From Planctomycetota bacterium (lineage in GTDB: Bacteria > Planctomycetota > UBA1135 > UBA2386): a DNA stretch of 64,000 nucleotides. Each line of letters opens with the position of its first letter. The stretch's first letter is position 1. Positions 6,005-51,933 of the stretch are shown here, piece by piece. Location: contig JBKAGP010000001.1 in assembly GCA_046290465.1 (NCBI GenBank), forward strand, positions 4,864,001 through 4,928,000, given 5' to 3'. Made by a program: the position numbers and the translations under genes. The notes beneath the pieces were generated by a model. It saw only the letters and a program-made list of their open reading frames with translations, did not search any database and had not been told where the DNA came from.

Positions 6005-6022
6005 GCCTAAGACTAGTTGGGC
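6005..6022 (+). other. attI-like integron primary recombination site
   Basis: GCCTAAGACTAG/TTGGGC resembles attI1 (CCCTAAAACAAAG/TTRRRY). GTTGGGCGG (6016-6024) is the exact reverse complement of CCGCCCAAC ending cassette 1. No attC hairpin precedes it. Confidence 0.6.
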
Positions 6023-6047
6023 GGACGCCGAATCTGCGCCCTTGACC

Positions 6048-6056
6048 TGCTAGACT
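6048..6056 (+). promoter_or_regulatory. Candidate extended -10 promoter inside cassette 1
   Basis: TG-C-TAGACT just upstream of the cassette 1 ORF. Confidence 0.3.
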
Positions 6057-6065
6057 TCCCTTCGA

Positions 6066-7373
6066 TTGGAGGACCCCGTAGTCGTTGCCCGCATGGAGGA
6101 ATCCGCTGCCGAGCTAGAGTCGATCGCTGAAACGTTGCAGCAGTTGGTCGACCGGTGTGAATCGTCCGAGGGCTGGAAGATGCTCGACGCGGTCGAGGAA
6201 TCTGCCAGTGATGTCGGGAGGTCTTGGAGCGGCTCGTGGCTGGGTTATCACTCCTGTGTTTACTACCGAGACCTGCAGCCGCCCCACGCGGGCCATCACT
6301 TCAGTAGTGAGTGGGGCCTGCAGGACACCATGATCCAGTACACGATTGGTCCATGGCAGGAATACAAGCCCGAGGACGTAGAGCAGGCGGTTTTCACCAA
6401 GGCCGGAAACCCGAAGCTAGACGACGCCCGTGAAATGGCTGATGCCCACGGCCGCGCTTTTGATCACGAGCAAGCAAAGGTTGTCTCGATCCTGGAGCTG
6501 GAGTCCTCAGGAGCCGAGAGCGATTCGCTCAAATCATTCCTGGCGGATGCCAGGAAGCTCGCAGTGCCTAAGCCAAATGACTTCGTCGCCTACATGCGTC
6601 CAGCTGGTCAGTTGATGTCCCGTGATAGTCTCGCTGCGACGCAGGGCGTGAAGACTCCACCGCACTTGAAGATCATTGCTCAGGTGATGGCGACCCGAGG
6701 GGCTAGTGAGGTATGCGGCGAGCTTGCAGCGATCTGCAAGAAGGCCGCAGCGCATCTGCACCGACTCGCAATCAAGCGACAGTCCGCAGGAGGCGCAGGT
6801 GAGCCCGAGTCCAAGGAACCACGTGCGGATGCCAGCAAGATGACGATCAGCGAGCTCGTAGGAGGGCTCCGACCGGCACATCTGTGGAAAGTAGTTGCAG
6901 CGCTCCTAGGGCTGCTTGGTGGGGCCTTTACCTTGGGATATAAAACACATGGAATCATCGGTGACGAAGCAGGTGCCGAGAGCAAACCGGGTCTGGCCGA
7001 GGGGGCACATGCCGAATCGCGGCCGAGCGATACACCCGGCGACAGCGCTGTGCTTGAGCTTGAGCATCGTTGCCACTGGATACGGACGCATGTGCTTGCC
7101 GACAATCTTACTGTGAAGCAAGCATGGGAGGCGCAGCGGGCGCTCGATGGAGGAGGTGGCTCCTTCCGAGCGGCAGATGATCAATATCGCGATCGCAACA
7201 TAGAGGCGGTCACGCGCGAGCGTTCCAATAGGGACCTGTTGTCAGCCATTACCACCCTTCGGCGCCTACTTTCGGAGGTGCCTGAATCTTCTCGGGATGG
7301 GCAGCTTGTGGAGCCTGTGTTGGCAGGCAAGATCCGGACGGCGGCAAGTTGCTTGCCGGGGCCGCCCAACTAG
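6066..7373 (+). CDS. Cassette 1: hypothetical protein with a conserved N-terminal domain (WSGSWLGYHS..YY) plus a transmembrane segment
   Basis: 435-aa ORF (alternative ATG at 6093) whose stop abuts attC1. Hydrophobic segment LWKVVAALLGLLGGAFTLGY. Confidence 0.8.
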   Translation: MEDPVVVARMEESAAELESIAETLQQLVDRCESSEGWKMLDAVEESASDVGRSWSGSWLGYHSCVYYRDLQPPHAGHHFSSEWGLQDTMIQYTIGPWQEYKPEDVEQAVFTKAGNPKLDDAREMADAHGRAFDHEQAKVVSILELESSGAESDSLKSFLADARKLAVPKPNDFVAYMRPAGQLMSRDSLAATQGVKTPPHLKIIAQVMATRGASEVCGELAAICKKAAAHLHRLAIKRQSAGGAGEPESKEPRADASKMTISELVGGLRPAHLWKVVAALLGLLGGAFTLGYKTHGIIGDEAGAESKPGLAEGAHAESRPSDTPGDSAVLELEHRCHWIRTHVLADNLTVKQAWEAQRALDGGGGSFRAADDQYRDRNIEAVTRERSNRDLLSAITTLRRLLSEVPESSRDGQLVEPVLAGKIRTAASCLPGPPN

Positions 7374-7427
7374 ACACAGGAGCTGACGACGCTTCGCGTC
7401 GCAGCTCAGTGCCCAAAGACGTTAGAC
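7364..7427 (+). repeat. attC site 1 (64 bp)
   Basis: GCCCAAC-TAGAC-ACAGGAGC-TGAC-GAC-GCTTCGC-GTC-GCA-GCTCAGT-GCCCAAAGAC-GTTAGAC. Confidence 0.93.
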
Positions 7428-7730
7428 GAGCCTGCCTGCCGCACTCGCGGCTGGCGAGCAGCACATGCCAAGGTTCGCGTGGTAGGCGGCGTGGCTAGCA
7501 AGCGGTCGATGGCTTCGACAGCACAGTCGCCGTTCACCGGCGTGGCAGCGAGGTCGTGGCATCCACGGGCAACGCATCCGAGTGCAGCGACGAGGCAGAG
7601 CCGGTTGAGGCGGCAGGCCGATCAGAGCAGCCACAGGCAGTTGACGAGGGCCTGCCGAGCACCAGAATGGTCGTCTAACTCGTCGCAGGAGCTGACAGCG
7701 CTTCGCGCTGCAGCTCAGCGACCGGAGACG
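7422..7730 (+). mobile_element. Cassette 2: ORF-less cassette, copy A
   Basis: 309 bp between crossovers. Near-identical to 8145-8452. No RBS-led ORF is conserved between the two copies. Confidence 0.85.
7641..7668 (+). promoter_or_regulatory. Candidate sigma70-type promoter in ORF-less cassette A
   Basis: TTGACG-N16-CAGAAT immediately before the attC, pointing at the next cassette. Confidence 0.4.
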
Positions 7731-7736
7731 TTGGAC
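7673..7736 (+). repeat. attC site 2 (64 bp)
   Basis: GTCTAAC...AGC-GCTTCGC-GCT...GACCGGAGAC-GTTGGAC. Confidence 0.93.
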
Positions 7737-7754
7737 GGACCGTTGTCGACCCCC

Positions 7755-8096
7755 GTGGATGTCCGTGTTGAAGCACTCCGGGATCTCATCCAGTGCCGGC
7801 GGCCCGTCTCCTCAGCTGTCGATCGGATTGCAAGGTTCGACTTCGCGTGTGCGGGGGAGTTGGTGTCACTTGAGGTTGCTCATGTTCGCGCTGTTTTGGG
7901 TCGCTTCGTTGCGGGCGAGCTGTCTGCAGTAGATGTCGCCGACTGGGCGAGCGCGCTTGAGGGGCGCGAGGATGTTGCGTACTCCCAGCGGGTAGCGGAT
8001 GCGCTTTTCGTGCTGTCTGCACCGGGGATCAACGGTGCGCTGACTCGTTCAGTGGCGCTCGAGATGATGGCTGGCTACGATAGGCCGTCCAACTAG
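7755..8096 (+). CDS. Cassette 3: hypothetical protein (~113 aa)
   Basis: GTG at 7755 is the first plausible start inside the cassette, in the frame of the 7479..8096 ORF. The stop lies in attC3. Confidence 0.7.
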   Translation: MDVRVEALRDLIQCRRPVSSAVDRIARFDFACAGELVSLEVAHVRAVLGRFVAGELSAVDVADWASALEGREDVAYSQRVADALFVLSAPGINGALTRSVALEMMAGYDRPSN

Positions 8097-8150
8097 TCAC
8101 AGCAGCTGACGGGGCTTCGCCCCGCAGCTGAGTGACCAAAGACGTTAGAC
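8087..8150 (+). repeat. attC site 3 (64 bp)
   Basis: GTCCAAC...GGG-GCTTCGC-CCC...GACCAAAGAC-GTTAGAC. Confidence 0.93.
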
Positions 8151-8452
8151 GAGCCTGCCTGCCGCACTCGCGGCTGGCGAGCAGCACATGCCAAGGTTCG
8201 CGTGGCAGGCGGCGTGGCAAGCAAGCGGTCGATGGCTCGACAGCACAGTCGCCGTTCACCGGCGTGGCAGCGAGGTCGTGGCATCCACGGGCAACGCATC
8301 CGAGTGCAGCGACGAGGCAGAGCCGGTTGAGGCGGCAGGCCGATCAGAGCAGCCACAGGCAGTTGACGAGCGCCTGCCGAGCACCAGAATGGTCGTCTAA
8401 CTCGTCGCAGGAGCTGGCAGCGCTTCGCGCTGCAGCTCAGCGACCGGAGACG
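8145..8452 (+). mobile_element. Cassette 4: ORF-less cassette, copy B
   Basis: 308 bp. Differs from copy A at about 5 positions (4 substitutions, one 1-bp indel). Confidence 0.85.
8363..8390 (+). promoter_or_regulatory. Candidate sigma70-type promoter in ORF-less cassette B
   Basis: TTGACG-N16-CAGAAT, with both hexamers conserved relative to copy A. Confidence 0.4.
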
Positions 8453-8458
8453 TTAGCA
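8395..8458 (+). repeat. attC site 4 (64 bp)
   Basis: GTCTAAC...GCTTCGC...GACCGGAGAC-GTTAGCA. Confidence 0.93.
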
Positions 8459-8477
8459 AGACCGGGAGAGTCGTCGG

Positions 8478-9494
8478 ATGAGTGAGCTGCCATCGCTGGA
8501 TGAAGTCGTGCCCATCGATACGGATGAGACCGTGCACGCCTTGTTGGGCAACGGGTTCAGTCGGGCGTGCAGGGATGACATCTTTGCCTACGACGCTCTG
8601 TTCGAGCAGGCGGACTTCGCGGGGCTGTCTGTTCATGCTCGTGCGGCCTTCGCAACACTCAAGACGACGGACTTTGAGGCTGTGATGACCGCACTGCGTC
8701 ATGCGGCCGAGCTTGTTCGACTGTACGATCCAACGAACTCCGCGTTGTCGAAGCAGTTGCGAGAGGATGCCGATGGCCTGCGCGAGGTCCTTGTGCAGGC
8801 AATCGCAGGTAGCCACCCTGCGCGTCCCCACGAGATCCCCAGCGATTCGTACGAGCGGTGCCGACGTTTCCTCAGCCGTTTTAAGCGCATCTACACCGTC
8901 AATTACGATCTGCTCCTCTACTGGGCCTTGATGCAGTCGGAACTTGGGGAGGAGATCCCGTTTGATGATGGATTCCGTACTCCGGAATCCGGTCCGACGG
9001 ACTACGTGACCTGGGAGCCGTGGAAGAACCACAGCCAGACCGTGTACTACCTTCACGGTGGCCTGCACATCTTCGATGCCAAGTCGGAGGTGCAGAAGTA
9101 CACCTGGATCAACACCGGGGTTCCGTTGATCGATCAGATCCGTCAAGCACTAGAGGATGGCAAATACCCCTTGTTCGTTGCTGAGGGCGAAACTGCGCAG
9201 AAGCTGGCGCGTGTCCGCCACAGCGACTACCTTGCCCGAGCTCTCAAGAGCTTCGCCAACATCGGCGGGACTCTGGTCGTGTATGGGCATTCCTTCGCAA
9301 CCAACGACGACCACATCTTTGATCGGTTGGCCGGTAATCAAGTCCGCAGGCTTGTTGTTGGCATCTACGGCGATCCGGACTCCGCCGACAACAAGCGCAT
9401 TCGTCGTCGAGCTGAGATGCTCTCGGAGCGCCGTTCGGCCAAACGGTCTCTCGACGTGAGCTACTTCGATGCGGCTTCCGCTGAGGTGTGGTAG
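8478..9494 (+). CDS. Cassette 5: DUF4917 family / SIR2-like protein
   Basis: Motifs LLGNGFS, YTVNYDLLLYW, YYLHGGLH, PLFVAEG, LVVYGHSF..NDDHI are the sirtuin-like motif series. GGGAG RBS upstream. Confidence 0.85.
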   Translation: MSELPSLDEVVPIDTDETVHALLGNGFSRACRDDIFAYDALFEQADFAGLSVHARAAFATLKTTDFEAVMTALRHAAELVRLYDPTNSALSKQLREDADGLREVLVQAIAGSHPARPHEIPSDSYERCRRFLSRFKRIYTVNYDLLLYWALMQSELGEEIPFDDGFRTPESGPTDYVTWEPWKNHSQTVYYLHGGLHIFDAKSEVQKYTWINTGVPLIDQIRQALEDGKYPLFVAEGETAQKLARVRHSDYLARALKSFANIGGTLVVYGHSFATNDDHIFDRLAGNQVRRLVVGIYGDPDSADNKRIRRRAEMLSERRSAKRSLDVSYFDAASAEVW

Positions 9495-9503
9495 GCTCGG
9501 GCT

Positions 9504-9567
9504 TGCTAACTAGTCGCAGGAGCTGACAGCGCTTCGCGCTGCAGCTCAGCGACCAAAGACGTTGGAC
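9504..9567 (+). repeat. attC site 5 (64 bp)
   Basis: TGCTAAC (matches the cassette start GTTAGCAAG)...GCTTCGC...GACCAAAGAC-GTTGGAC. Confidence 0.93.
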
Positions 9568-9583
9568 AGGCCGTCGTCGAATC

Positions 9584-9919
9584 ATGAGTCGAGACGTCGA
9601 GGTCGAGATCACCTACCTGCCAACCGAGCACGGCGGGAGATCGAGCCCAGCTTTCAACGGCTACCGACCGCAGTTCTACTACGCCGGCAACGACTGGGAT
9701 GCGCAGCACGAGTATCCCGACGTGGAGCGAGTAGCGCCGGGCGAGTCGGCCCGTGCATTTCTGAATTTCTTGTCTCCCGCGCAGCACGTCGGACGAGTAG
9801 TCGCCGGCATGCCCTTCTTGATTCGCGAGGGCAACCGAGTTGTTGGCTACGGACGCGTCCGGCGGGTCGTTGACCTCGAGCAGTCCGCGGCACGTGACGA
9901 TCAGCCGCGCAGTGAGTAG
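9584..9919 (+). CDS. Cassette 6: stand-alone EF-Tu C-terminal (domain III)-like protein
   Basis: EHGGRSSPAFNGYRPQFYY...VAPGE...FLIREGNRVVGYGRV aligns by eye with EF-Tu EGGRHTPFFKGYRPQFYF...VMPGD...FAIREGGRTVGAGVV. Confidence 0.85.
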   Translation: MSRDVEVEITYLPTEHGGRSSPAFNGYRPQFYYAGNDWDAQHEYPDVERVAPGESARAFLNFLSPAQHVGRVVAGMPFLIREGNRVVGYGRVRRVVDLEQSAARDDQPRSE

Positions 9920-9922
9920 GCT

Positions 9923-9985
9923 GTCCAACTAGGCGCAGCAGCCGGCGACGCTTCGCGTCGCGGCTGAGCGCCAAAGACGTTGGAC
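9923..9985 (+). repeat. attC site 6 (63 bp)
   Basis: GTCCAAC...GAC-GCTTCGC-GTC...GCCAAAGAC-GTTGGAC. Confidence 0.92.
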
Positions 9986-10010
9986 AGACCGGTCCGGCCA
10001 AGGAGGAGCC

Positions 10011-10262
10011 ATGAGTGTCGATCAGGTTCGAGTCATCATTCGCTTGTTCGCGTTGGCGACGGTCCTGGTTGGAGCGGTCATGACAACCATGACGCTCATC
10101 GGAGTTGTCGCGTGGGGGCAAGCGACGATCTCGGTTAGCGATCAGGAGTGGAGTGGTGCTGGCATGGATGCCTACGCGATAGCTGCACACGCTTCGATCA
10201 TTGCATGGGGTGTCGGGTTTCACCTTGCCAGCGGGCGGCTTGCCAAACTGGTCGTCAAGTAG
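10011..10262 (+). CDS. Cassette 7: small two-TM membrane protein
   Basis: AAGGAGG RBS, 83 aa, two hydrophobic helices. Confidence 0.8.
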   Translation: MSVDQVRVIIRLFALATVLVGAVMTTMTLIGVVAWGQATISVSDQEWSGAGMDAYAIAAHASIIAWGVGFHLASGRLAKLVVK

Positions 10263-10276
10263 CGGAATGGTAGGCT

Positions 10277-10342
10277 GTCCAACAAGGCTCAGCAGCTGAC
10301 GCTCGCTTCGCTCGCGCAGCTGAGAGCCAAGAGACGTTGGTC
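10277..10342 (+). repeat. attC site 7 (66 bp)
   Basis: GTCCAAC...GCTC-GCTTCGC-TCGC...GCCAAGAGAC-GTTGGTC. Confidence 0.9.
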
Positions 10343-10366
10343 GGACGGGGCGGGAGGTTAGACCGA

Positions 10367-11305
10367 GTGACACTTGAGCAGCTGAGAGCCATCGTGGACC
10401 GCATGGAGGCGCGCAAGCAGCGTGCAGCCGCGCGAGTCAATCCGAGTGAGTCGTCACGCATGTGGTTCGCGATGCTCGGGGTTGAGCTTGAGGCGCCTGA
10501 GCTGCAGATTGGCGAGATCGCCACGCTTCGCCGAGTCGAGGAACCGCCCGGCGAGATCGAGCTAGCATCTGCTCTGCAGGATCGCAGCTTGATGAGTGCA
10601 GTCGGTCGCTACTCATCTTCGATTCGCGCCGAGTTGGGAGTCGAGCGGCTGAGGCCCGAGCATCCGCAGAGTGCTCTGACGCTCGGCTGGTGGTTGATCT
10701 CAGCACTTCGCATCAAGACCCTTGGCGACTTCCTGGTTCCGGCAGTTGCAGACCATCCATGGGGCACCATTGCAGGGCTGCCGGAGACGTCTTGTCACGT
10801 GCAGCTTCTTGAGGATGTTCCAAGGAGTCGACGACTTGAGTCAGTGCCAGCAATTGCCAAGTCAGATCTAGACTGGGTTGAGGAGCACCTAGCCTCGCTT
10901 GCCGAGTTGCTCGAGGTTACGCGATTCCGGCTTGCCGTTGAGTGCCTCACCACGCATCAGCACGAGGGCAGCTTGCGGATGACAGCTGCGTCTCTCTGGA
11001 GCGGGATCGAGGCGCTGTTCGGGGTGACGAGTGAGCTACGGTTTCGGTTGGCGTCCCTGGCAGCTGCCTTCTTGGCGCCCAGGGGCGACGCGCGTGTGCA
11101 GCGCTACCGAGAGACCAAGCGTCTGTACGACGTGCGATCCAAGGTCGTGCATGGTGCCGCAATCGAATCCGATGCGGTCACGCAGCACGTCCTACTAGCG
11201 CGCCAACTCTTGGCAGAGCTTCTATCTCGAATGATCGAGGCTGGTCGAGTTCCGGCAGGTGATGATTGGGACGCGATCCTTCACGGTGAGCCGCCGGCCA
11301 ACTAG
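10367..11305 (+). CDS. Cassette 8: HEPN-domain protein (ApeA-like), putative RNase
   Basis: GGGAGG RBS before GTG at 10367. C-terminal LWSGIEALF...ELRFRL...LYDVRSKVVHG carries the HEPN E...RX4H signature. Confidence 0.8.
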   Translation: MTLEQLRAIVDRMEARKQRAAARVNPSESSRMWFAMLGVELEAPELQIGEIATLRRVEEPPGEIELASALQDRSLMSAVGRYSSSIRAELGVERLRPEHPQSALTLGWWLISALRIKTLGDFLVPAVADHPWGTIAGLPETSCHVQLLEDVPRSRRLESVPAIAKSDLDWVEEHLASLAELLEVTRFRLAVECLTTHQHEGSLRMTAASLWSGIEALFGVTSELRFRLASLAAAFLAPRGDARVQRYRETKRLYDVRSKVVHGAAIESDAVTQHVLLARQLLAELLSRMIEAGRVPAGDDWDAILHGEPPAN

Positions 11306-11359
11306 GCTCAGGAGCTGACGGCGCTACGCGCCGCAGCTCAGAGCCCAAAGACGTTGGGC
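11296..11359 (+). repeat. attC site 8 (64 bp)
   Basis: GGCCAAC...GGC-GCTACGC-GCC...GCCCAAAGAC-GTTGGGC. Confidence 0.92.
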
Positions 11360-11460
11360 AGACGTGTGCGATTCTGCATTCTGGGGCTACCCCTGGAGGC
11401 GCTCGCCCGACCTGAGTGTGCGGGTTTGCCTCCGGATGTCGGACGCGCTTTGATGACGAC

Positions 11461-12258
11461 ATGAGTGAGAAGAGTGCAGAGTCGTCGGGCGTTAATCCCG
11501 GAGAGCCCGATGCCGGGAAAGGCGATCTGACCTCGAAGCTCTTTGGCGTCACCTTGTTGCCCGCGCTCTCGAAGTTGCTCAATCCATCGGCCGAGTTACT
11601 TGGGGCGGAGCTGCGTGCGTCCATTCAGGAGAAGCTGGCGGATTGGAAGGAGCGCGCTCGAGCGCGAAACTTGGCGGGCAACATCCGCATGGCATCGGAG
11701 CGCCTGAAGCGCGAAGACTCCTCAGGCAAGGCTGGCAGCGTTGAAGGCGCCACAGCCTTCGAAGAGTGGTGCGAATGCGCATCCGAGGTCGACCCCGAGT
11801 CGGAGCTCGGCCGAGTATGGCAGGAGATTCTGGTCGACATCGCATTGGGTCGTACGTGGGCGCGGCACCACGTCGATGTGCTGAAGCGGCTGAGCGCCTT
11901 CGAAGCAGAATCGCTCATTCGTCTTGTTGAGACAGGGGGACTCAAGCAGAGGGCTGAGAATGCTGCCATGTTCGCGAAGCTGCGGGAGTTGGGCCTTGCG
12001 AAGAGATTCACGGTGCTGACCGACCTGAAGTTGCTAGGTCTGCTGATAGGTGGCGCGCTGGCCCTATCTCTTGCTACCGCTACGACCTTCGGAATACCGA
12101 GTCTCTGGGAAATGTCGGAGCGCACTAAGCGTTTCTATGGACGGTGTTTACTGGTGGCGTGGGCATTCGTCGGCTACTGTGTGACGCGCTGGCAATACAT
12201 GGGTCACAGGCCCACCCGACTTGCCATTCGCCTAGTGGGTAAGGCGCGGCGTTCATGA
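11461..12258 (+). CDS. Cassette 9: Abi-alpha/DUF4393-like protein with C-terminal TM helices
   Basis: ASEVDPESELGRVWQEIL...HHVDVLKRLSAFEAESL resembles the Abi-alpha pattern (WAxLL...Hxxxx.LKxLS..EA..L). Two hydrophobic segments lie at the C-terminus. Confidence 0.6.
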   Translation: MSEKSAESSGVNPGEPDAGKGDLTSKLFGVTLLPALSKLLNPSAELLGAELRASIQEKLADWKERARARNLAGNIRMASERLKREDSSGKAGSVEGATAFEEWCECASEVDPESELGRVWQEILVDIALGRTWARHHVDVLKRLSAFEAESLIRLVETGGLKQRAENAAMFAKLRELGLAKRFTVLTDLKLLGLLIGGALALSLATATTFGIPSLWEMSERTKRFYGRCLLVAWAFVGYCVTRWQYMGHRPTRLAIRLVGKARRS

Positions 12259-12303
12259 GCGACCTTGCGGAGTATTGTGGAGCGCATTGTTGGTATCGTC
12301 GCT

Positions 12304-12367
12304 GCCCAACTAGTCGCTGCAGCTGACGACGCTTCGCGTCGCAGCTGATGGGCCATAGACGTTGTGC
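12304..12367 (+). repeat. attC site 9 (64 bp)
   Basis: GCCCAAC...GAC-GCTTCGC-GTC...GGCCATAGAC-GTTGTGC. Confidence 0.9.
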
Positions 12368-12375
12368 ATCGAGCG

Positions 12376-12975: not shown

Positions 12976-12998
12976 GGGAGGCAAGGTCTCGTCGAGCC

Positions 12999-13164: not shown

Positions 13165-13542
13165 ATGACAGATCCAGCAGATGCCTTCCCCGATGACGAA
13201 GATGGCGCCGTGCTCGCCTCGCTGGCCGAGGCCGGTGTCGACCTGAGCAAGCCGATCGAGCTCGAGTTCGTCATCGACGCGCCCGACGAGGCTGCGGCCA
13301 ACCAGATCGCCGCGGCCGTGCGCGCTGCCGGCCACGAGTGTCAGGTCGAGTACGACGAGGGGGAGCCGGACGAGGACGACGAGGCCGATTCCGGCGACGA
13401 GGAGTTCGGCCCGTCGTGGGCGGTCTACGTGAGCCTTGAGGCGGTGGCGGAGCACGCCCGGATCGTGCAGCTGCAGCAGATGTTCACCCAGCTGGCGGAG
13501 CCTCACGGCGGCGCCTGCGACGGCTGGGGTGCGATGGCCTGA
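13165..13542 (+). CDS. RraB-like (ribonuclease E inhibitor RraB domain) acidic protein
   Basis: DGAVLASLAEAGVDLSKPIELEF...LAEPHGGACDGWG; very acidic. Confidence 0.8.
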   Translation: MTDPADAFPDDEDGAVLASLAEAGVDLSKPIELEFVIDAPDEAAANQIAAAVRAAGHECQVEYDEGEPDEDDEADSGDEEFGPSWAVYVSLEAVAEHARIVQLQQMFTQLAEPHGGACDGWGAMA

Positions 13543-17930: not shown

Positions 17931-20531
17931 GTGCGTCTTTCCACCCTCTACATCTCGCTGGCAGTGATGTCAGCAACCGCTGGTCTGCGCGCCCAGTGGG
18001 TCACCTACTCCAACCAGACGAACAACCGCGTCTCGGCAGCCGCCTCCCTGGTCACCGGCGACCAGCAGGAGAAGGACTACGCCTGGGGCGACCTGGACAA
18101 GGATGGTGACATCGATCTCGTGATCGTGCGCAAGCAGCCGTTCACGACTGGCGGCCACTTCCCCAACGTTCTGCTGATGAACGAGAACGGCGTGCTGACC
18201 GATCGCTCGGCCACGCTGACGACGTCGACCGTCGCGGGCAGCTCGGGCTTCCTCGACGCGACCAACGACCGCGACGTGGTCATCGCCGACATCAACGGCG
18301 ACGGCTGGGACGACGTGATCACCGCGACGACGCTGACGGCCGGCATGCCGACCTACATCCGCGCCAACCGCGTCTACATCAACCAGGGTGAGCAGAACGG
18401 CGTCTGGCAGGGCCTGCTCTACGACGATGCCCTGCGCATCGACGACACGCCCTACAACGGCGAGCACCGCTTCTGCTCGGTGGCGGCAGGCGACGTCGAC
18501 GGAGACGGCGATGTCGACCTCTACTTCGGCGACTACCAGCAGGGTGGCACGCGCTCGATCGACGTCAACGACCGCCTGCTGATCAACGACGGCACCGGCT
18601 ACTTCACCGACGAGTCGTCGACCCGCATGACCGTCACGATGCTCGAGTCGTCGTTCGGCATGAAGGTGGCGATCCACGACATGAACAACGACGGCAAGCT
18701 CGACATCCTCAAGGATGACGCGCTGAACGCGCCGCAGGCCGTGTCGATCAGCTACAACAACACGGCGACCGAGGGCGTCTTCGGCGACTACACGTTGCCC
18801 TACGGCAACCAGCCGTACCACTTCAACCTCGGTGACCTGAACAACGACGGCTGGACCGACTTCATCGTCAGCGACGACGGTCAGGACCAGTACGTGCTCA
18901 ACCAGGGCGCGACCGGCAGCCAGCCGGCGCAGTTCAGCAACCCGATCGCGTTCAGCTACAGCGGTGGCGGCAACGACGACGGCTTCGGCGGCAACAACAT
19001 CATCGCCGACCTCGACAACGACGGCTGGGCCGACGCGATCGTCGCCGACGTCGACGTCGACATCTCCGGCTGCAACCGTCGCTGCCACATCTTCCGCAAC
19101 CTCGGCAACGCGCCGAACGTCACGCTGCAGGAGCAGATCGTCAACGGCCAGGTGGTCGGCGGCATCACGCCGGCGGCGCTGCAGGGCACGTTCGACGTGG
19201 CGATCTTCGACATCGACGGCGACGGCTGGAAGGACCTGGTCGTCGGTCGCTGCACCGGCACCGAGGTCTACATGTGCGTGCCGCCGGTCGGTCTGACGTT
19301 TGCGTTCGTCGGCGGTCTGCCGTCGATGATCGCGCCGGGCGTTGCCCAGCAGGTCACCGTCGACGCCACCGGCATCGGCGGCGTCACGCCGGTCGCCGGC
19401 ACGGGCGAGCTGTTCTACTCGATCAACAACGCGCCCTTCCAGTCGATCGCGATGAGCGACTCGGGCCCGGGTCAGTTCCAGGCGACGCTGCCGGCGATGC
19501 CCAACTGCGCCGACGGGATCCGCTTCTATGTCAGCGCGCAGGGCAGCAACGGCTCGGTCTACAACGATCCGCCGGCGGCCCCGTCGGGCTACTACTCGGC
19601 CGTCGCCGCGGTCAGCCTCGACACGATCTACTCCAACAACTTCGAGCAGAACGACACCGGCTGGACGGTCGTCAACACCAACCTGACGACGGGTGCGTGG
19701 GAACGCGCCACGCCCAACGGCACCACTCAGGGTGCGGAGATCGCCGCGCCGTTCGACGACGCCGAGGCCGGTGCCGCGACCTTCTGCATGGTCACCGAGA
19801 ACGGCCTGCCCGGCGGTTCGGTCGGCACGGCCGACGTCGACGGCGGCCCGACCGACCTGATCTCGCCGCAGCTCGACTTCGGCGGCACGGACGGCTTCAT
19901 CAGCTACCAGCGCTGGTTCTACTCGAGCGGCGCCGACGTGCTCGAGGTCGCGGTGTCGGGCGACGGCACCAACTGGGTCACGGTCGAGGTCGTCGACGGC
20001 GACAACAACGAGTGGACCCTCAACCAGTTCCGCGTCGGTGCGTTCATCACGCCGACGTCGACCGTGCAGGTCCGCTTCCGCACCGCGGACGTCAGCCCGG
20101 GCAGCATCGTCGAAGCCGCGCTCGACGTCTTCAAGGCGGAGACGTTCAACTGCGACTGGTGCCAGCCGACGTTCCCGCTGACCACGATCGGCACCGGCAC
20201 GCTGTCGATGTGCGGCGACCAGCTCTCGGCCACGACGCCGAGCACGACGCTCAAGGTCGAGAACGTGCCGCCGTCGGCCTACTCACTGCTGCTGTTCGAC
20301 GCGTTCGCCGTGCCGGTCACGTCGCCGTGGAACAGCGGTGAGCTGATCAGCGCCGGGCCCGGCACGATCGGTCCGCTGTTCGCCAACGCCAGCGGCGAGA
20401 TCTCGATCCCGCTCAACATCGGTGGCCTGCTGCCGCCGGGCTGGGCGATCTACCTGCAGGGGCTCTACACCGACGCCTCGCTGCCGGGTCAGGTCGGCAT
20501 CACCAACGCGCTGCGCGTCGAGTGGTACTGA
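17931..20531 (+). CDS. Secreted FG-GAP/VCBS-repeat beta-propeller protein with Ig-like and jelly-roll domains
   Basis: Signal peptide; repeated D.D.DG..D motifs (GDLDKDGDID, DINGDGWDD, DVDGDGDVD, DMNNDGKLD, DLNNDGWTD, DLDNDGWAD, DIDGDGWKD). Confidence 0.88.
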   Translation: MRLSTLYISLAVMSATAGLRAQWVTYSNQTNNRVSAAASLVTGDQQEKDYAWGDLDKDGDIDLVIVRKQPFTTGGHFPNVLLMNENGVLTDRSATLTTSTVAGSSGFLDATNDRDVVIADINGDGWDDVITATTLTAGMPTYIRANRVYINQGEQNGVWQGLLYDDALRIDDTPYNGEHRFCSVAAGDVDGDGDVDLYFGDYQQGGTRSIDVNDRLLINDGTGYFTDESSTRMTVTMLESSFGMKVAIHDMNNDGKLDILKDDALNAPQAVSISYNNTATEGVFGDYTLPYGNQPYHFNLGDLNNDGWTDFIVSDDGQDQYVLNQGATGSQPAQFSNPIAFSYSGGGNDDGFGGNNIIADLDNDGWADAIVADVDVDISGCNRRCHIFRNLGNAPNVTLQEQIVNGQVVGGITPAALQGTFDVAIFDIDGDGWKDLVVGRCTGTEVYMCVPPVGLTFAFVGGLPSMIAPGVAQQVTVDATGIGGVTPVAGTGELFYSINNAPFQSIAMSDSGPGQFQATLPAMPNCADGIRFYVSAQGSNGSVYNDPPAAPSGYYSAVAAVSLDTIYSNNFEQNDTGWTVVNTNLTTGAWERATPNGTTQGAEIAAPFDDAEAGAATFCMVTENGLPGGSVGTADVDGGPTDLISPQLDFGGTDGFISYQRWFYSSGADVLEVAVSGDGTNWVTVEVVDGDNNEWTLNQFRVGAFITPTSTVQVRFRTADVSPGSIVEAALDVFKAETFNCDWCQPTFPLTTIGTGTLSMCGDQLSATTPSTTLKVENVPPSAYSLLLFDAFAVPVTSPWNSGELISAGPGTIGPLFANASGEISIPLNIGGLLPPGWAIYLQGLYTDASLPGQVGITNALRVEWY

Positions 20532-20574
20532 TCGACCCGACGCCACCCGCCGCGGCGCAAGCTGCGGTGCCGAC

Positions 20575-20613
20575 GAAGGCCCGCGTCCCGCACCAGTGCG
20601 GGCGCGGGCCTTC
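20575..20613. terminator. Strong hairpin after the FG-GAP gene (terminator-like)
   Basis: GAAGGCCCGCG-T-CCCGCAC-CA-GTGCGGG-CGCGGGCCTTC inverted repeat; only a weak U-tract. Confidence 0.45.
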
Positions 20614-20703
20614 TCGCTGTCTGGTAGACTTCTCGAACCTGCCATTCCCGTTCCGATCCCCAAGCCTCCCCGGGGCGGGCGCACTCCACAGGAATCTCGT
20701 CAC

Positions 20704-22551
20704 ATGCGTTCCCTCGCACCTTCCCTATTGCTCGTGTCCGTCGCGGCGCCGCTGCTGGCGCAGTCGCCGCAGCCCAAGATGGGCGATCCGCTGTCGGGCC
20801 TCACGGCCACGCAGCTGCAGGCCTTCGAAGACGGCCGCACCGACTTCGGCACGCCGCTCGACGCGGCCGGCGGCCTCGGCCCGATCTTCAACCAGGTCAG
20901 TTGCGCCAACTGCCACAACAACCCGGTCGGCGGCCCCGGCGGCACGACCGTGACGCGCTTCGGCTACGACGACGGCAAGGGCGGCTTCGACCCGCTGGCG
21001 GGCCTCGGTGGTTCGCTGCTGCAGTCGGGCGCGATCGCGCCGGGCGCGGCCGAGGTGATCCCGGCCGCGGCCAACATCACCTCGCAGCGCGTCACCCCGA
21101 GTGCGCTCGGCGCCGGCCTGATCGAGGCGATCCCGGACGCCGACATCGAGGCCAACGAGACCAACCCGCCGAGCGCCAACGTCAGCGGCCGCGTGCACTG
21201 GGTGCAGCCGCTCGAGGACCCGACCGGTCCGCTGCGCGCCGGCCGCATGGGTTGGAAGGCACAGGTCGCGACGGTGCTGACGTTCTCCGGGGACGCCGCC
21301 CTCAACGAGATGGGCCTCACCAACCGCCTGGTTCCGACCGAGAACGCGCCGAACGGCAACCTCGCGATCCTGGCGCAGTACGACACGGTCGCCGATCCGG
21401 AGGACGGCCCCGACGCCAACGGTCTCGACTTCATCGACCGCATCACCAACTTCCAGCGCTACCTCGCCGCGCCGCCGCAGACGCCCAAGGCGGGCATGAC
21501 CGGCGAGACGATCTTCGGCAGCGTCGGCTGCGCCGACTGCCACGTCTCGACCTGGACGACCAGCAACGACCCGGCGCTCGAGGCGGCGATCCGCAACCAG
21601 ACGATCAAGCCGTACAGCGACTTCCTGCTGCACGACATGGGTGTCTCGGCCGACTTCATCGGCGACGGCGACGCGACCACGCAGGAACTGCGCACGCCGA
21701 GCCTGTGGGGCGTGCGTTCGCGCAACGCGCTGTGGCACGACGGCCGCGTCGTCGGTGGCACGCTCGAGACGCGCATCCTCGGCGCCGGCGGCATCATCGA
21801 CCTGCACGCGTCGCTCGGCAGCGAGTCGCGCCCGTCGGCGCTGGCGTTCCAGGCGCTGTCGAATGCCGACCAGCTGGCGGTCGTCGCGTTCCTCGATTCG
21901 CTCGGTCGCGCAGAGTTCGACTTCGACGGCGACAACGATCGCGACCAGGACGACCTGGCGGCGTTCGTCGCGGCGATGGGCGGCGGCCCCTACACGGCGG
22001 ACGACGCCGAGGCGGTCTTCGACATCAACCAGGACGGCTTCGTCGACATCCTCGATCGCGACGCGTTCGCGCTCGTCTACGAGGGCGACTGCAACAACAA
22101 CGGCGTCAACGACCTGGCGGACGTGGTCTTCGGCGGCTTCGACGACGCCAACGAGAACCTGCTGCCCGACGGCTGCGAGCACTGCCAGACCGACCTCGGC
22201 TTCGCCGGCGCCGGCACGCTGCGCCTCGACATCTGCGGCGACGTGCTGACCGACGTCGGTTCGCGCGCATCGTTCCAGCTGGTCGACGGTCCGGTGACCG
22301 CGCCGGTGATCATCGGCATTGGCGTCGCGCAGAACCCGTACCTGATCACGCCGACCGAGTACCTGGTCCCGCTAGAGCCGCTGGCCGCGGTCGTCGAGTT
22401 CTTCATGACCGACGCCAACGGCGAACTGCACGTGCCGCTGATCGGCGGCGGCAACTTCCCGACGTCGACCTGGGTGTTCCAGGCGGCCACGTTCGACGGC
22501 ACCAACTACGACCTGTCGAACGCCCTCGAGGTCGAGGTCGGCGCCTTCTAG
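20704..22551 (+). CDS. Secreted di-haem oxidoreductase family (DHOR/DUF1111) protein with EF-hand/dockerin-like region
   Basis: GLGPIFN..SCANCH, GRMGWKAQ, EMGLTN, GCADCH, YSDFLLHDMG, RTPSLWG; DFDGDNDRD and DINQDGFVD calcium loops. Confidence 0.85.
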   Translation: MRSLAPSLLLVSVAAPLLAQSPQPKMGDPLSGLTATQLQAFEDGRTDFGTPLDAAGGLGPIFNQVSCANCHNNPVGGPGGTTVTRFGYDDGKGGFDPLAGLGGSLLQSGAIAPGAAEVIPAAANITSQRVTPSALGAGLIEAIPDADIEANETNPPSANVSGRVHWVQPLEDPTGPLRAGRMGWKAQVATVLTFSGDAALNEMGLTNRLVPTENAPNGNLAILAQYDTVADPEDGPDANGLDFIDRITNFQRYLAAPPQTPKAGMTGETIFGSVGCADCHVSTWTTSNDPALEAAIRNQTIKPYSDFLLHDMGVSADFIGDGDATTQELRTPSLWGVRSRNALWHDGRVVGGTLETRILGAGGIIDLHASLGSESRPSALAFQALSNADQLAVVAFLDSLGRAEFDFDGDNDRDQDDLAAFVAAMGGGPYTADDAEAVFDINQDGFVDILDRDAFALVYEGDCNNNGVNDLADVVFGGFDDANENLLPDGCEHCQTDLGFAGAGTLRLDICGDVLTDVGSRASFQLVDGPVTAPVIIGIGVAQNPYLITPTEYLVPLEPLAAVVEFFMTDANGELHVPLIGGGNFPTSTWVFQAATFDGTNYDLSNALEVEVGAF

Positions 22552-48461: not shown

Positions 48462-50405
48462 TCAGCTGCCCAGCAGCCCTTGCTGCCGCAGGTGCTCGAG
48501 CACCTTCTGCACGTTCTGCTCGAGGGTGTCCTTCTCCGTGTCGAGCACGATCTCGGCGTTCTTCGGCGCCTCGTAGGGGGCGTCGATGCCGGTCACGTTG
48601 CCGATCTCGCCGGCGCGGGCGCGCTCGTAGAGGCCGTCCTCGTCGCGGCCCTCGCAGACCTCGAGCGGCGCGTCGCAGAACACCTCGACGAAGCCGTCGC
48701 CGACGATCTCGCGGGCCTGGTCGCGTTCGAAGCCGAGCGGCGAGACCAGCGCGACGATCGTGCTGACGCCCATCGTCTTGTTGAGCGCGGCCAGCTCGGC
48801 GGCGCGGCGCTGGTTCTCCCAGCGGTCGGCGCCGCTGAAGCCCAGGTCGCGGTTGAGGCCCATGCGCAGGATCTCGCCGTCGAGCACCTGCACGAACTTC
48901 TGGTGCTCGAACAGCTGCTTCTCGAGTTCGTAGGCGAGCGACGACTTGCCGGCGCGCGGCAGGCCGGTGATCCACAGCGTGAACGGCTTCTGCCCGAGGC
49001 GCTGTTCGCGCTGCTCGGACGACACCTTGCGCTTGTCGTGCAGGCGCACGTTGCTGCGGGCGTCGTGGCTGTCGCTGCGGCGCGCGGTTGCGTCCTTGGC
49101 GATCTTGCGCTCGACGATCATGCCGGCGCCGACGGTGGCGTTGCTCATCCGGTCGATCAGGATGAACGAGCCGGTGCCGCGGTTCTTCTGGTAGGCGTCG
49201 ACGGCGAGCGGGCGGGCGCACTCCAGGTGGATGCGGCCGACCTCGTTCATCTTCAGCTCCGGCGCCGACTCGCGGCGCAGCGTGCCGACGTTGGTGCGGT
49301 AGCGCAGGTCGGCGACGCTGGTCGAGGTCTGCGCCGAGGTGTGCTTGATCAGGTAGTTCTGGCCCGGCTTGAGCGGCTTCTCGTCGAACCACACGACCAT
49401 CGCCTCGACGTCGTTGGCGAGCGCCGGCGCGTTGTTCGGCGTGGCGATCATGTCGCCACGGCTGATGTCGATCTCGTCCTCGAGCGTCAGCACGACCGCC
49501 AGCGGCGCGAACGCCTCCTCCAGCTTGCCGTCGAACGTCTCGATCGTCTTGACCTTCGACGTCTTGCCGGACGGCAGCGCGGTGACCTCGTCGCCGACGC
49601 GCACCAGGCCCGACGCGATCGTGCCGGCGTAACCGCGGAAGTCGAGGTTCGGGCGCAGCACGTTCTGCACCGGGAAGCGCAGGTCGACCAGGTTGCGGTC
49701 GGACGCGACGTGCACGGTGTCGAGGTGGTCGAGCAGCGGCGAGCCCTGGAACCAGGGCATGCTCTCGCCGCGATGCACGACGTTCTCGCCCTTCAGCGCG
49801 GACATCGGGATGAAGTGGATGTCCTTGACGTTGAGGCGCGCGGCGAACTCGCTGTAGGCCTCGCGGATCTCGTCGAACTTCTCCTGCGAGTAGTCGACCA
49901 GGTCCATCTTGTTGATCGCGATCACGAAGTGCTGGATGCCCAGCAGCGCGCAGATGAACGAGTGGCGGTGGGTCTGCTCGAGCACGCCGTAGCGCGCGTC
50001 GATCAGGATGATCGCCAGGTCACACGCCGACGCGCCGGTCGCCATGTTGCGCGTGTACTGCACGTGGCCGGGGCAGTCCGCGATCACGAACTTGCGGCGG
50101 TCGGTCGCGAAGTAGCGGTAGGCGACGTCGATCGTGATGCCCTGCTCGCGCTCGGCCTGCAGGCCGTCGACGAGCAGCGCCAGGTCGACCTCCTCGCCGG
50201 TGGTGCCGAACTTGGACGAGGCCTTGGTGGTGGCCTCGAGCACGTCGTCGTGGACCTGCTCGGAGTCGTACAGCAGACGCCCGATCAGCGTCGACTTGCC
50301 GTCGTCGACGCTGCCGCACGTCAGCAGCTTCAGCATCTCGCGGTTGCCGTACTTCTCGAGGTACTTCTCGATGCCCAGTTGGTCGAGTTGGTTCGAGTAG
50401 CTCAT
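48462..50405 (-). CDS. cysN: Sulfate adenylyltransferase large subunit fused to an APS-kinase domain (CysN/CysC)
   Basis: CGSVDDGKSTLIGRLL, EREQGITIDVAYRYF, DCPGH, NKMD; C-terminal GLPRAGKS, LDGE, TGIDAPYE. Confidence 0.96.
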   Translation of the reverse strand: MSYSNQLDQLGIEKYLEKYGNREMLKLLTCGSVDDGKSTLIGRLLYDSEQVHDDVLEATTKASSKFGTTGEEVDLALLVDGLQAEREQGITIDVAYRYFATDRRKFVIADCPGHVQYTRNMATGASACDLAIILIDARYGVLEQTHRHSFICALLGIQHFVIAINKMDLVDYSQEKFDEIREAYSEFAARLNVKDIHFIPMSALKGENVVHRGESMPWFQGSPLLDHLDTVHVASDRNLVDLRFPVQNVLRPNLDFRGYAGTIASGLVRVGDEVTALPSGKTSKVKTIETFDGKLEEAFAPLAVVLTLEDEIDISRGDMIATPNNAPALANDVEAMVVWFDEKPLKPGQNYLIKHTSAQTSTSVADLRYRTNVGTLRRESAPELKMNEVGRIHLECARPLAVDAYQKNRGTGSFILIDRMSNATVGAGMIVERKIAKDATARRSDSHDARSNVRLHDKRKVSSEQREQRLGQKPFTLWITGLPRAGKSSLAYELEKQLFEHQKFVQVLDGEILRMGLNRDLGFSGADRWENQRRAAELAALNKTMGVSTIVALVSPLGFERDQAREIVGDGFVEVFCDAPLEVCEGRDEDGLYERARAGEIGNVTGIDAPYEAPKNAEIVLDTEKDTLEQNVQKVLEHLRQQGLLGS

Positions 50406-51313: not shown

Positions 51314-51933
51314 TGGGCGGTTGGCGGCGGGCTGAGGAAGCCGCGTTGTTCGAGCATGGCCTGGACCGCGGCGGCGCACTCGTCGAGCGAGAGGTCGCCG
51401 GTCTTCAGGTGGACGGCCGGGTCTTCGGGCGCCTCGTACGGCGACGAGATGCCGGTGAACTCGGGGATCTCGCCGGCGCGCGCCTTCTTGTAGAGGCCCT
51501 TGGGGTCGCGCGACTCGCACACCTCGATCGGCGCGTCGACGAACACCTCGAGGAAGTCGTGATCGCCGACGACGTCGCGCACCTGCTGGCGGTCTTGACG
51601 GAACGGCGAGATGAAGGCGGTCAGCACGATTGCGCCGGCGTCGGCCATCAGCGCCGCGACGTGGCCGATGCGGCGGATGTTCTCGGTGCGGTCGGCGTCG
51701 GAGAAGCCGAGGTCGGCGCAGAGGCCGTGGCGCACGTTGTCGCCGTCGAGCACGTAGACGAGGCGACCGGCCGCGGTCAGCTTCTCCTCGACGACCCGCG
51801 ACACCGTCGACTTGCCCGAACCGGACAGGCCGGTGAACCACGCCACGCAGCCGCGCTGGCCCAGCAGGCGCTCCCGATCCTGTCGGGAGATCACGCCTTC
51901 GTGGCGCACGATGTTGCGTGGAGAGTCGGTCAT
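51310..51933 (-). CDS. cysC: Adenylyl-sulfate kinase
   Basis: [47 protein letters not shown]. Confidence 0.97.

Follow-up and report, generated by a model that had tools for sequence, protein, structure and literature searches.

A stand-alone paralogue of EF-Tu domain III carried as an integron gene cassette in a Planctomycetota bacterium

What does the third domain of elongation factor Tu (EF-Tu) do when it is separated from the rest of the protein and carried by a mobile cassette? The question is raised by a short gene of a Planctomycetota bacterium (assembly GCA_046290465.1), located in a 64,000-nucleotide stretch of contig JBKAGP010000001.1 (positions 4,864,001 to 4,928,000 of the forward strand) that was analysed as a whole and is called here the window. 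An earlier note, written from this DNA alone, had described an intact 111-aa open reading frame (ORF) in its own cassette that matched only the C-terminal barrel of EF-Tu, and had suggested that it might act as a decoy or as a sensor. Its description of the gene is borne out by the matches in Pfam, NCBIfam and PDB and by the flanking attC sites. The product of the gene is a stand-alone paralogue of domain III of bacterial EF-Tu, folded and under selection, and the gene is the sole ORF of an integron gene cassette in a tandem attC array.

The similarity to Pfam family PF03143 (GTP_EFTU_D3) was above the gathering score (33.9 bits for a cut-off of 27, E 4.2e-8) and aligned residues 4-95 of the protein with positions 7-105 of the 106 in the profile. 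The NCBIfam models of EF-Tu were matched over their last ~90 positions only (TIGR00485, 47.5 bits versus a cut-off of 522.4, positions 304-393), and the only significant phmmer matches among PDB sequences were EF-Tu chains, at their residues ~305-400 (best E 1.4e-14). A protein of 111 aa has no room for domains I and II and is not EF-Tu proper. The AF2 model, built on an alignment of 88 relatives, has six strands followed by a C-terminal helix (pLDDT 96.2, pTM 0.87), and in a Foldseek comparison with PDB all its top matches were EF-Tu domain III (rmsd 1.1-1.7 A over 98-99 columns, 32-37% identity), with a TM score by query of 0.72-0.76 against EF-Tu chains. The host genome has a single tuf gene, coding for a 400-aa EF-Tu that is 33-40% identical to the protein in domain III. 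Residues 81-90 of the protein read REGNRVVGYG, as the earlier note had given them, where the EF-Tu of the same genome has REGGRTVASG. No dedicated model for the stand-alone family was found in NCBIfam, PADLOC or Pfam.

Relatives of the protein number more than 200 and are mostly about 110 aa long. A word-indexed search gave 113 clusters (61-195 aa, E <= 1e-3) that were 47-75% identical to the query, most of them from short metagenome contigs. Furthermore, when 1.84 billion representatives were scanned in full with HMMER, using the family profile, 3544 matches had E <= 1e-3 and 47 had E <= 1e-30; the matches that are true fragments of EF-Tu (domain II with domain III, Pfam 207-210 bits) begin only at about 1e-26. 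The nearest ESM Atlas clusters are bacterial, with 51-315 members of ~103-132 aa, and the names found in the databases (ESM Atlas clusters, JGI/NCBI records) are automatic ones, 'EF-Tu C-terminal domain-related protein' or 'putative elongation factor Tu'. We found no paper on a stand-alone EF-Tu domain III family or on EF-Tu domain III as an integron cassette; this is a familiar EF-Tu domain in a free and mobile form that has been named only automatically.

The family is clearly separated from EF-Tu. In a FastTree phylogeny of the domain III segments (267 rows and 108 columns, after dropping exact duplicates and rows covering <85 of the 112 profile positions), one branch of length 0.88 with an SH-like support of 99 splits the 239 family rows from 28 EF-Tu rows. 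The latter are two fragments and 26 genome loci, from the phylum of the window and from that of genome G401 (labelled Alphaproteobacteria); the tree is unrooted, and its EF-Tu genome loci come from these two phyla alone. Rows of the family had a median identity of 44% to each other and of 33% to the EF-Tu rows, which had a median of 78% among themselves. Pairwise dN/dS values (Nei-Gojobori, 80 genes, 3160 pairs) had a median of 0.15 and a range of 0.03-0.43 in the 79 pairs with 0.05 < dS < 1.5. The family is large and old, has a single origin and is under purifying selection. The earlier note had named two outcomes that would speak against it, namely a fold other than the domain III barrel and homologues nested within recent tuf fragments with no purifying selection; neither was found, because the fold is that of the barrel and the clade is separate and under purifying selection. 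Its view of the gene as a clean, diverged, selected single-domain copy in mobile form agrees with the separate clade, the dN/dS values and the cassette.

Could the gene be a functionless remnant of a tuf duplication? All its named relatives are EF-Tu proteins, and many members have been labelled 'elongation factor Tu' automatically. This origin is nevertheless contradicted by the intact ORF in its own cassette, the presence of only one, diverged, tuf in the genome, the dN/dS of 0.15 and the existence of hundreds of same-length relatives, which form a single long-branch clade and share an insert and the C-terminal helix. We consider it ruled out for practical purposes.

The gene lies in an integrase-less cassette array (CALIN) with nine attC sites (Table 1). 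The two crossover points of its cassette, between G and TT of the core sites, fall at 9561/9562 and 9979/9980, and its own attC begins 4 nt past the stop codon. The repeat unit of the array is an imperfect palindrome of 60-65 nt with cores RYYYAAC ... GTTRRRY, always on the + strand, and a profile of the array recovered all nine sites (E 2e-19 to 5e-15). The window has 6 occurrences of the 16-mer core pattern, where chance would give 0.41. The G+C content of the array (0.61-0.65) is below that of the flanks (about 0.70). Like other integron cassettes and CALIN, the element is a single promoterless-looking ORF with an attC; unlike them, its cargo is a piece of a core translation factor, for which we found no description among cassettes. 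No tyrosine recombinase (PF00589) was matched inside the window, the nearest being at genome position 4,025,230, and the array is classified for this reason as a CALIN and not as a complete integron; the window contains no attI either. A complete integron is found elsewhere in the genome (2,140,250-2,143,250, ~2.7 Mb away), with a 350-aa integrase (TIGR02249, 420.9 bits for a cut-off of 265) and five adjoining attC sites of the type found in the window, on the same strand as the integrase gene. In total, attC sites of this type were found at four other places in the 6.59-Mb genome, with further pairs near 3.9635, 4.3494 and 5.7037 Mb. This putative integrase may act on attC sites of the type found in the window.

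Table 1 Features of the domain III cassette and of the array that contains it (window positions, except for parts of the protein)
Feature	Position	Strand	Remarks
Stand-alone EF-Tu domain III gene	9584..9919	+	Intact 111-aa ORF, ATG start, 0 internal stops
Six-strand barrel of the protein	Residues 5-95		AF2 model
Family-specific C-terminal helix of the protein	Residues 98-106		AF2 model
Gene cassette	9562..9979	+	418 bp, from the G/TT crossover of the preceding attC to the G/TT of its own attC
attC of the domain III cassette	9923..9987	+	From R'' GTCCAAC to R' GTTGGAC, 9923-9985; folds as DNA into an imperfect hairpin of -26.1 kcal/mol
attC of the preceding cassette	9506..9569	+	R' core ends 16 nt 5' of the ATG
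Integrase-less cassette array (CALIN)	6016..12368	+	Nine attC sites
Lone core site GTTGGGC	6016-6022		Left end of the array
Nine attC sites	7365-7428, 7673-7738, 8087-8151, 8395-8459, 9506-9569, 9923-9987, 10277-10344, 11297-11361, 12305-12368	+	
Degenerate tenth attC-like repeat	Near 12996		
Neighbouring cassette gene, DUF4917 (SIR2-like)	8478..9494	+	338 aa; PADLOC candidate PDC-S21, E 1.5e-119

The domain III cassette was also found, with 0 differences, in contigs of two public sequencing runs (X2 and X3); records 18 (9525-9893) and 26 (9651-9940) each span part of the gene. In these runs, for which only the parts with cover were considered, contigs have joints at attC sites of the array (6015>9979 in X2; 6027>12318, 7740>8084, 8139>9541, 8146>9557 and 10340>11298 in X3). 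These joints are compatible with different cassette orders and do not prove them, since their shorter sides are only 29-44 nt long and fall inside the repeated attC.

Unlike EF-Tu, which is universal, the family is mobile and rare in genomes. In the phylum of the window 2 of 401 genomes had it, one of them being the genome of the window itself (E <= 1e-25), and in the phylum of G401 it was present in 1 of 401, this being the centre genome, chosen for having the gene (E <= 1e-24). Among the loci of relatives that could be evaluated, an attC-like hairpin at the stop codon was detected in 24 of 71, and at 18 of 354 control anchors placed at random in these loci. The hairpin had to start between -8 and +40 nt of the stop, with AAC ... 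GTT constrained to pair and a DNA energy below -0.2 per nt. A stricter attC detector found one downstream in 10 of 71 loci and upstream in 11 of 69. The family spreads horizontally, largely as integron cassettes. In five metagenomic loci of one lineage (L030, L031, L036, L038 and L040), a 70-aa ORF precedes the domain III gene with an overlap of 7 nt, and two tandem tyrosine-recombinase genes (about 713-744 aa) follow downstream, which suggests that the gene is there the cargo of another type of mobile element.

Three plasmid records of PLSDB carry family members. A Chondrinema plasmid has a 232-aa fused member. The two others, from Aeromonas, have a 114-aa family ORF in a class 1 integron, and one of the two plasmids is a conjugative IncU KPC plasmid. 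The cassette order there is intI1, aac(6')-Ib4, a LysE-family gene and then the 114-aa ORF as third cassette, upstream of ISKpn6 and blaKPC-2. In plasmid pKPC-1ac6 of Aeromonas sp. ASNIH7 the ORF is found at record positions about 8022-8366 (L129:4968-5312), and the ASNIH5 plasmid has the same arrangement. A GCCTAAC core overlaps its stop codon, and it scores 88.6 bits on the family profile versus 28.4 bits on the EF-Tu domain III profile. No gene is listed at this ORF in the (incomplete) gene table of PLSDB, and the only near-identical cassettes among 72,556 records were those of the same 2 Aeromonas plasmids.

A tblastn search of 50,697 phage records returned 15 hits, all of them true tuf genes or contaminating bacterial DNA. 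A pattern scan of IMG/VR found one degenerate relative, an ORF of ~107 aa in a 316-kb contig (L134:4001-4219) that retains the motifs QFYY, DWD and LLREG and is without the GGR loop. In BFVD, a search by fold turned up only translation GTPases of giant viruses and, weakly, one phage protein of 91 aa.

The neighbourhoods of the relatives do not point to a partner either. An all-against-all BLAST of 230 flanking ORFs from 83 loci revealed no partner gene conserved across lineages, only lineage-restricted groups. Of 136 neighbour ORFs compared with Pfam, 47 were matched at E <= 1e-4 and 89 were not. The matches included tyrosine recombinase domains in 7 loci (5 of them close relatives), MazF, PIN, HicA (below the cut-off), Imm1, Imm32, Barstar (in 2 related loci), GFA (2), GNAT and NERD. 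The immunity or toxin-antitoxin (TA) matches were isolated cases, and no toxin, antitoxin or phage gene was conserved beside the family members in the 136 ORFs of the 83 loci, so that the survey of gene neighbourhoods proposed in the earlier note did not reveal such a partner. The role of sensor that it had also considered seems unlikely, because this is a single-domain protein without an effector partner.

Which parts of EF-Tu domain III has the family kept? Like the domain in EF-Tu (PF03143; PDB 4zv4, 1efc and 1ttt), the protein is a six-stranded barrel (rmsd 1.1-1.3 A to EF-Tu domain III) with the motifs GGR, GYRPQF(Y), PG, REG and a final G. Unlike EF-Tu, the family is without the GTPase domain and domain II, has a four-residue insert with a conserved His and a C-terminal helix, reads DWDA where EF-Tu has TDVTG, and has replaced G380, T382 and A385, besides forming a separate clade on the 0.88 branch. 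Residues were counted over the 239 family rows, with E. coli numbering counted back from Thr382 and Glu378. Largely unchanged, with the number of rows that keep the EF-Tu residue, are G317 (236), R318 (213, with K in 18 more), Q329 (226), D336 (203), R377 (219), E378 (231), G379 (232) and G386 (234). The positions that have changed are H319 (S in 55, K in 49, R in 39, T in 29, and others), T338 (D in 203), G380 (N, Q, A or S), T382 (V in 119, T in 70, I in 32) and A385 (Y in 119, R in 34, F in 26, K in 21). The pattern of V, T and I at the equivalent of Thr382 is that of a structural beta-branched position. Other residues are conserved in the family only: W38 (195 rows), D39 (203), A40 (202) and H68 (211), the last one located in the family-specific four-residue insert.

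The T-arm pocket of EF-Tu is represented in the protein by G17-G18-R19, Q30 and R81-E82-G83, equivalent to E. coli G316-G317-R318, Q329 and R377-E378-G379. The excerpts of PMC10653918 describe G317, R318, H319 and E378 as a strictly conserved pocket of domain III abutting tRNA nucleotide 52, where a bound compound would clash with the phosphate of that nucleotide, and mention that domain III also binds EF-Ts. R318 and H319 contact the T-psi-C loop according to excerpts of PMC9071432. From the counts at G317, R318 and E378 and the pocket as described in PMC10653918, the part that the family keeps most strictly is the RNA-facing pocket.

One possible explanation is that the protein works as a stand-alone module that binds the elbow of tRNA or transfer-messenger RNA (tmRNA), shielding or sequestering RNAs with a T-arm, for example from tRNA-targeting nucleases, and that the fused forms described below tether other domains to tRNA. 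The most conserved residues are those of the pocket that the excerpts of PMC10653918 and PMC9071432 assign to the tRNA/tmRNA backbone and the T-psi-C loop. Several features argue against this. T338 is replaced by Asp in most rows and H319 by varied residues, and the median net charge of the core domain is about -2, the same as in EF-Tu domain III. T338 is reported, in work by the Uhlenbeck laboratory, to be a T-stem contact residue of EF-Tu; a literature search for the T-stem contact residues Glu390, Gln341 and Thr350 gave nothing. Domain III alone provides only part of the affinity of EF-Tu for tRNA. No tRNA, tmRNA or RNA-processing gene appeared as a conserved neighbour in the homologue loci. 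We consider this explanation rather unlikely, and it is not mutually exclusive with binding to EF-Ts.

The other partner of domain III was approached by complex prediction, using two copies of the short EF-Ts (200 aa) of the same genome and the family alignment. The predicted complex scored 0.80, the best of 3 controls scoring 0.01; the mark used was reached by 116 of 157 solved complexes and by 2 of 215 mismatched pairs, counts that hold only roughly here because two EF-Ts copies and a custom alignment were used. The runs agree in at least 88% of the contacts and the partner has a pLDDT of at least 85. The predicted interface includes residues 10, 12, 16, 32, 34-37, 75, 77, 79, 81, 83-84, 86 and 88-91, that is, the beta5-beta6 face (P77, L79, V86, G88-R91), where EF-Tu has A375, T382 and A385.

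On this basis we tentatively read the protein as a mimic of EF-Tu domain III that may compete for EF-Ts and/or tRNA, which we regard as possible though short of probable. It would retain two partner surfaces, the T-arm pocket for tRNA or tmRNA and the beta5-beta6 face that docks EF-Ts in the predicted complex. A protein that has neither the GTPase domain nor domain II cannot deliver tRNA, and all it would do is occupy EF-Ts, for which the support is best, and/or the elbow of tRNA. With these occupied, the EF-Tu cycle would be damped or re-tuned, or the host factors would be kept from something that depends on them. The four-residue insert with His68 and the C-terminal helix may be adaptations to life as a free domain.

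Several points weigh against this interpretation. One of the three EF-Ts runs scored 0.47, and because EF-Tu:EF-Ts complexes have been solved, the good score may reflect only likeness or memory. The predicted face is moderately conserved (L79 in 68%, V86 in 50%, Y89 in 50% and R91 in 27%) and differs from EF-Tu at A375, T382 and A385. Most of the EF-Tu:EF-Ts interface is in domain I, and a lone domain III should for this reason bind EF-Ts weakly. On the RNA side, neither the Asp found at T338 in 203 of 239 rows nor the slight acidity favours strong binding. The conserved patch could be partly structural, and the promiscuous fusion to unrelated small domains would fit an adaptor or immunity-like role as well.

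The latter role was considered from the fused forms. Members of >150 aa account for 57 of the 239 rows. Extensions of at least 45 aa (66 of them, on 60 proteins) fell into 7 small similarity groups and 43 singletons; 3 of these 60 proteins are true EF-Tu fragments and several other extensions are probably gene-call artefacts. The fusion partners recognised by Pfam were DUF5071 (2), Cys_rich_CPCC (2), DUF6881, pentapeptide repeats, SnoaL_2 (SnoaL/NTF2-like) and DUF5694. The DUF5071 partner is related to PDB 3ut4/3ut7, an uncharacterised protein. In the literature on these partners we found DUF5071 in one unrelated genome paper and Cys_rich_CPCC in none.

The largest fusion group (P0155, P0177, P0188, P0192, P0214, P0227, P0232 and P0262, and also the ORF at L130:4968-5666) is low in G+C and has a C-terminal domain of ~115 aa (model residues 129-240, pLDDT 90.7), modelled with an alignment of these eight representatives and one distant relative (P0204). 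The domain has no Pfam match. Its fold is similar, with middling scores, to the Pol-beta nucleotidyltransferase fold (4rpx_A, Z 8.7, rmsd 2.9, 102 aligned) and to RsfS/iojap (3ups_A, Z 7.7, rmsd 2.8, 88 aligned). Past residue 100, the nine-row alignment contains three invariant columns (W112, F224 and G234), none of them acidic. No family is named here for this domain, which also has no conserved acidic motif.

Some of these fusions could be read in favour of elbow binding. Modules rich in Cys and similar to zinc ribbons are among the partners (Cys_rich_CPCC in P0141 and P0244; pairs of Cys in P0127, P0136 and P0168), an inactive nucleotidyltransferase-like fold (similar to RsfS/iojap and to CapRel, an enzyme that modifies tRNA) follows the barrel in the 8 related representatives (middling Z 6.8-8.7), and one fusion has a weak match to the peptidyl-tRNA hydrolase PTH2 (E 0.004). 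Against this, the fold matches of the fused domain are within the range that the tool calls common. The fusions show that the barrel is a portable binding module, without revealing what it binds.

A general protein-binding adaptor, or an immunity-like module of conflict systems whose ligand is no longer a translation component, would be in agreement with the many small and varied fusion partners of the long rows. Mix-and-match fusion to small non-catalytic domains is reportedly typical of immunity proteins (Zhang et al. 2012). Moreover, W38, D39, A40 and H68, conserved in the family only, point to a new or altered binding site. However, the EF-Tu-specific patch is almost invariant, which argues for an EF-Tu-type ligand, and no toxin gene is adjacent in the window. 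The polymorphic-toxin survey PMC3482391 contains, in the first 300,000 of its ~358,000 characters, no EF-Tu, 'elongation factor', CPCC or DUF4240. Overall, the adaptor role seems improbable to us.

The earlier note had pointed out that EF-Tu is targeted by the toxin Doc and by phages and antibiotics, and the protein might be a decoy or pseudo-substrate for factors that hit EF-Tu domain III, such as Doc-type kinases, phage proteins that recruit EF-Tu or EF-Ts, or antibiotics. It is mobile, single-gene and cassette-borne, it adjoins a defence candidate, and one member is found in a clinical class 1 integron, where drugs usually select the cassettes. Elsewhere, some neighbours belong to immunity or TA families (Imm1, Imm32, Barstar twice, MazF, PIN and, below the cut-off, HicA). 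That Doc phosphorylates Thr382 of EF-Tu, in domain III, is supported by PMC7180214, which also indicates that Doc binding probably overlaps the tRNA site, that is, the retained patch. The specific involvement of Doc is not supported. The acceptor position is more often V or I than T, G380 and A385 are changed, and the host genome (94% complete) has no match to a Fic/Doc domain. Also against a decoy, no toxin is a conserved neighbour, the family was not found in the phage records mentioned above, and the protein has no PADLOC match. In the excerpts of PMC9071432 and PMC5737660, the EF-Tu-dependent CDI toxins with solved structures contact domain II of EF-Tu and not its domain III. Kirromycin-type antibiotics need the interface between domains I and III, of which the protein has only half. 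A decoy for such agents is in our opinion quite improbable. The general idea of molecular mimicry put forward in the earlier note fares better than its Doc version, and fits the kept T-arm residues and the EF-Ts prediction. The possible explanations can be ordered as action on the EF-Ts/EF-Tu cycle, binding of the tRNA/tmRNA elbow, an adaptor or immunity-like role, and a decoy against EF-Tu-targeting agents, with the dead fragment excluded.

The rest of the array provides little guidance about function. The cassette that precedes the domain III gene codes for the DUF4917 (SIR2-like) protein matching candidate PDC-S21. This is an independent cassette. Contigs of runs X10 and X12 have it too, differing at 12-16 letters per piece of 386-561 bases, and do not carry the domain III cassette. 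The earlier note had placed the gene among defence-like cassettes; this is true of that one neighbour, while a PADLOC-DB 2.0 scan matched 0 families for the domain III protein and for the other 9 proteins in or beside the array. The remaining cassette genes had no family match. Two cassettes (7360-7742 and 8083-8464) are duplicates of each other over ~308 bp (93-97% identical), with one other cassette between them; they contain only ORFs of 40-70 aa that end in attC and may be small-peptide or non-coding cassettes.

DUF1501 genes are found on the flank of the array, which would point to a planctomycete host. At its edge, just beyond the degenerate repeat, there is an RraB-family gene (regulator of ribonuclease activity B, E 1.5e-21; 13165-13542, + strand), RraB being another small protein that binds a core enzyme of the RNA machinery. 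Like RraB, the Qnr pentapeptide proteins and FusB, which act by binding or imitating a component of the core machinery, the domain III protein is small, encoded by a single mobile gene and without a catalytic motif; in sequence and fold it has no relation to any of the three. Farther away, many ~45-nt repeats (17931-22200, + strand) code for Asp-rich D-x-N/D-x-D-G-x-x-D motifs in long ORFs (one of 866 aa), which we take to be calcium-binding FG-GAP/VCBS-type repeats of a large surface protein. Two stretches (48565-48895 and 51428-51761) are 72-75% identical and 2.86 kb apart, suggesting adjacent paralogous genes.

EF-Tu is among the best-studied proteins, yet its free and mobile third domain was in no paper that we found. 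If the protein does bind EF-Ts or tRNA, it would be a simple and transferable means of tuning or shielding the elongation-factor cycle, and resistance enzymes, toxin-antitoxin pairs and defence genes would be joined by a new type of integron cargo. More speculatively, and with little likelihood in our estimate, it might belong to a new class of integron-borne 'translation-factor decoys', in which a free domain III ties up EF-Ts, the tRNA elbow or an attacker that binds domain III and so protects the host. Such a class would protect from single-stranded RNA phage replicases, tRNase toxins activated by EF-Tu/EF-Ts, Doc-type kinases or antibiotics that bind domain III, and it would explain the upkeep of the gene as a single-gene cassette, including the one in a clinical class 1 integron. 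The protein is small, its predicted fold is of high confidence and its candidate partners are clear, which makes these ideas directly testable. If it turned out to be protective against a drug, a toxin or a phage, this would matter for the way in which cassettes of unknown function in clinical integrons are read.

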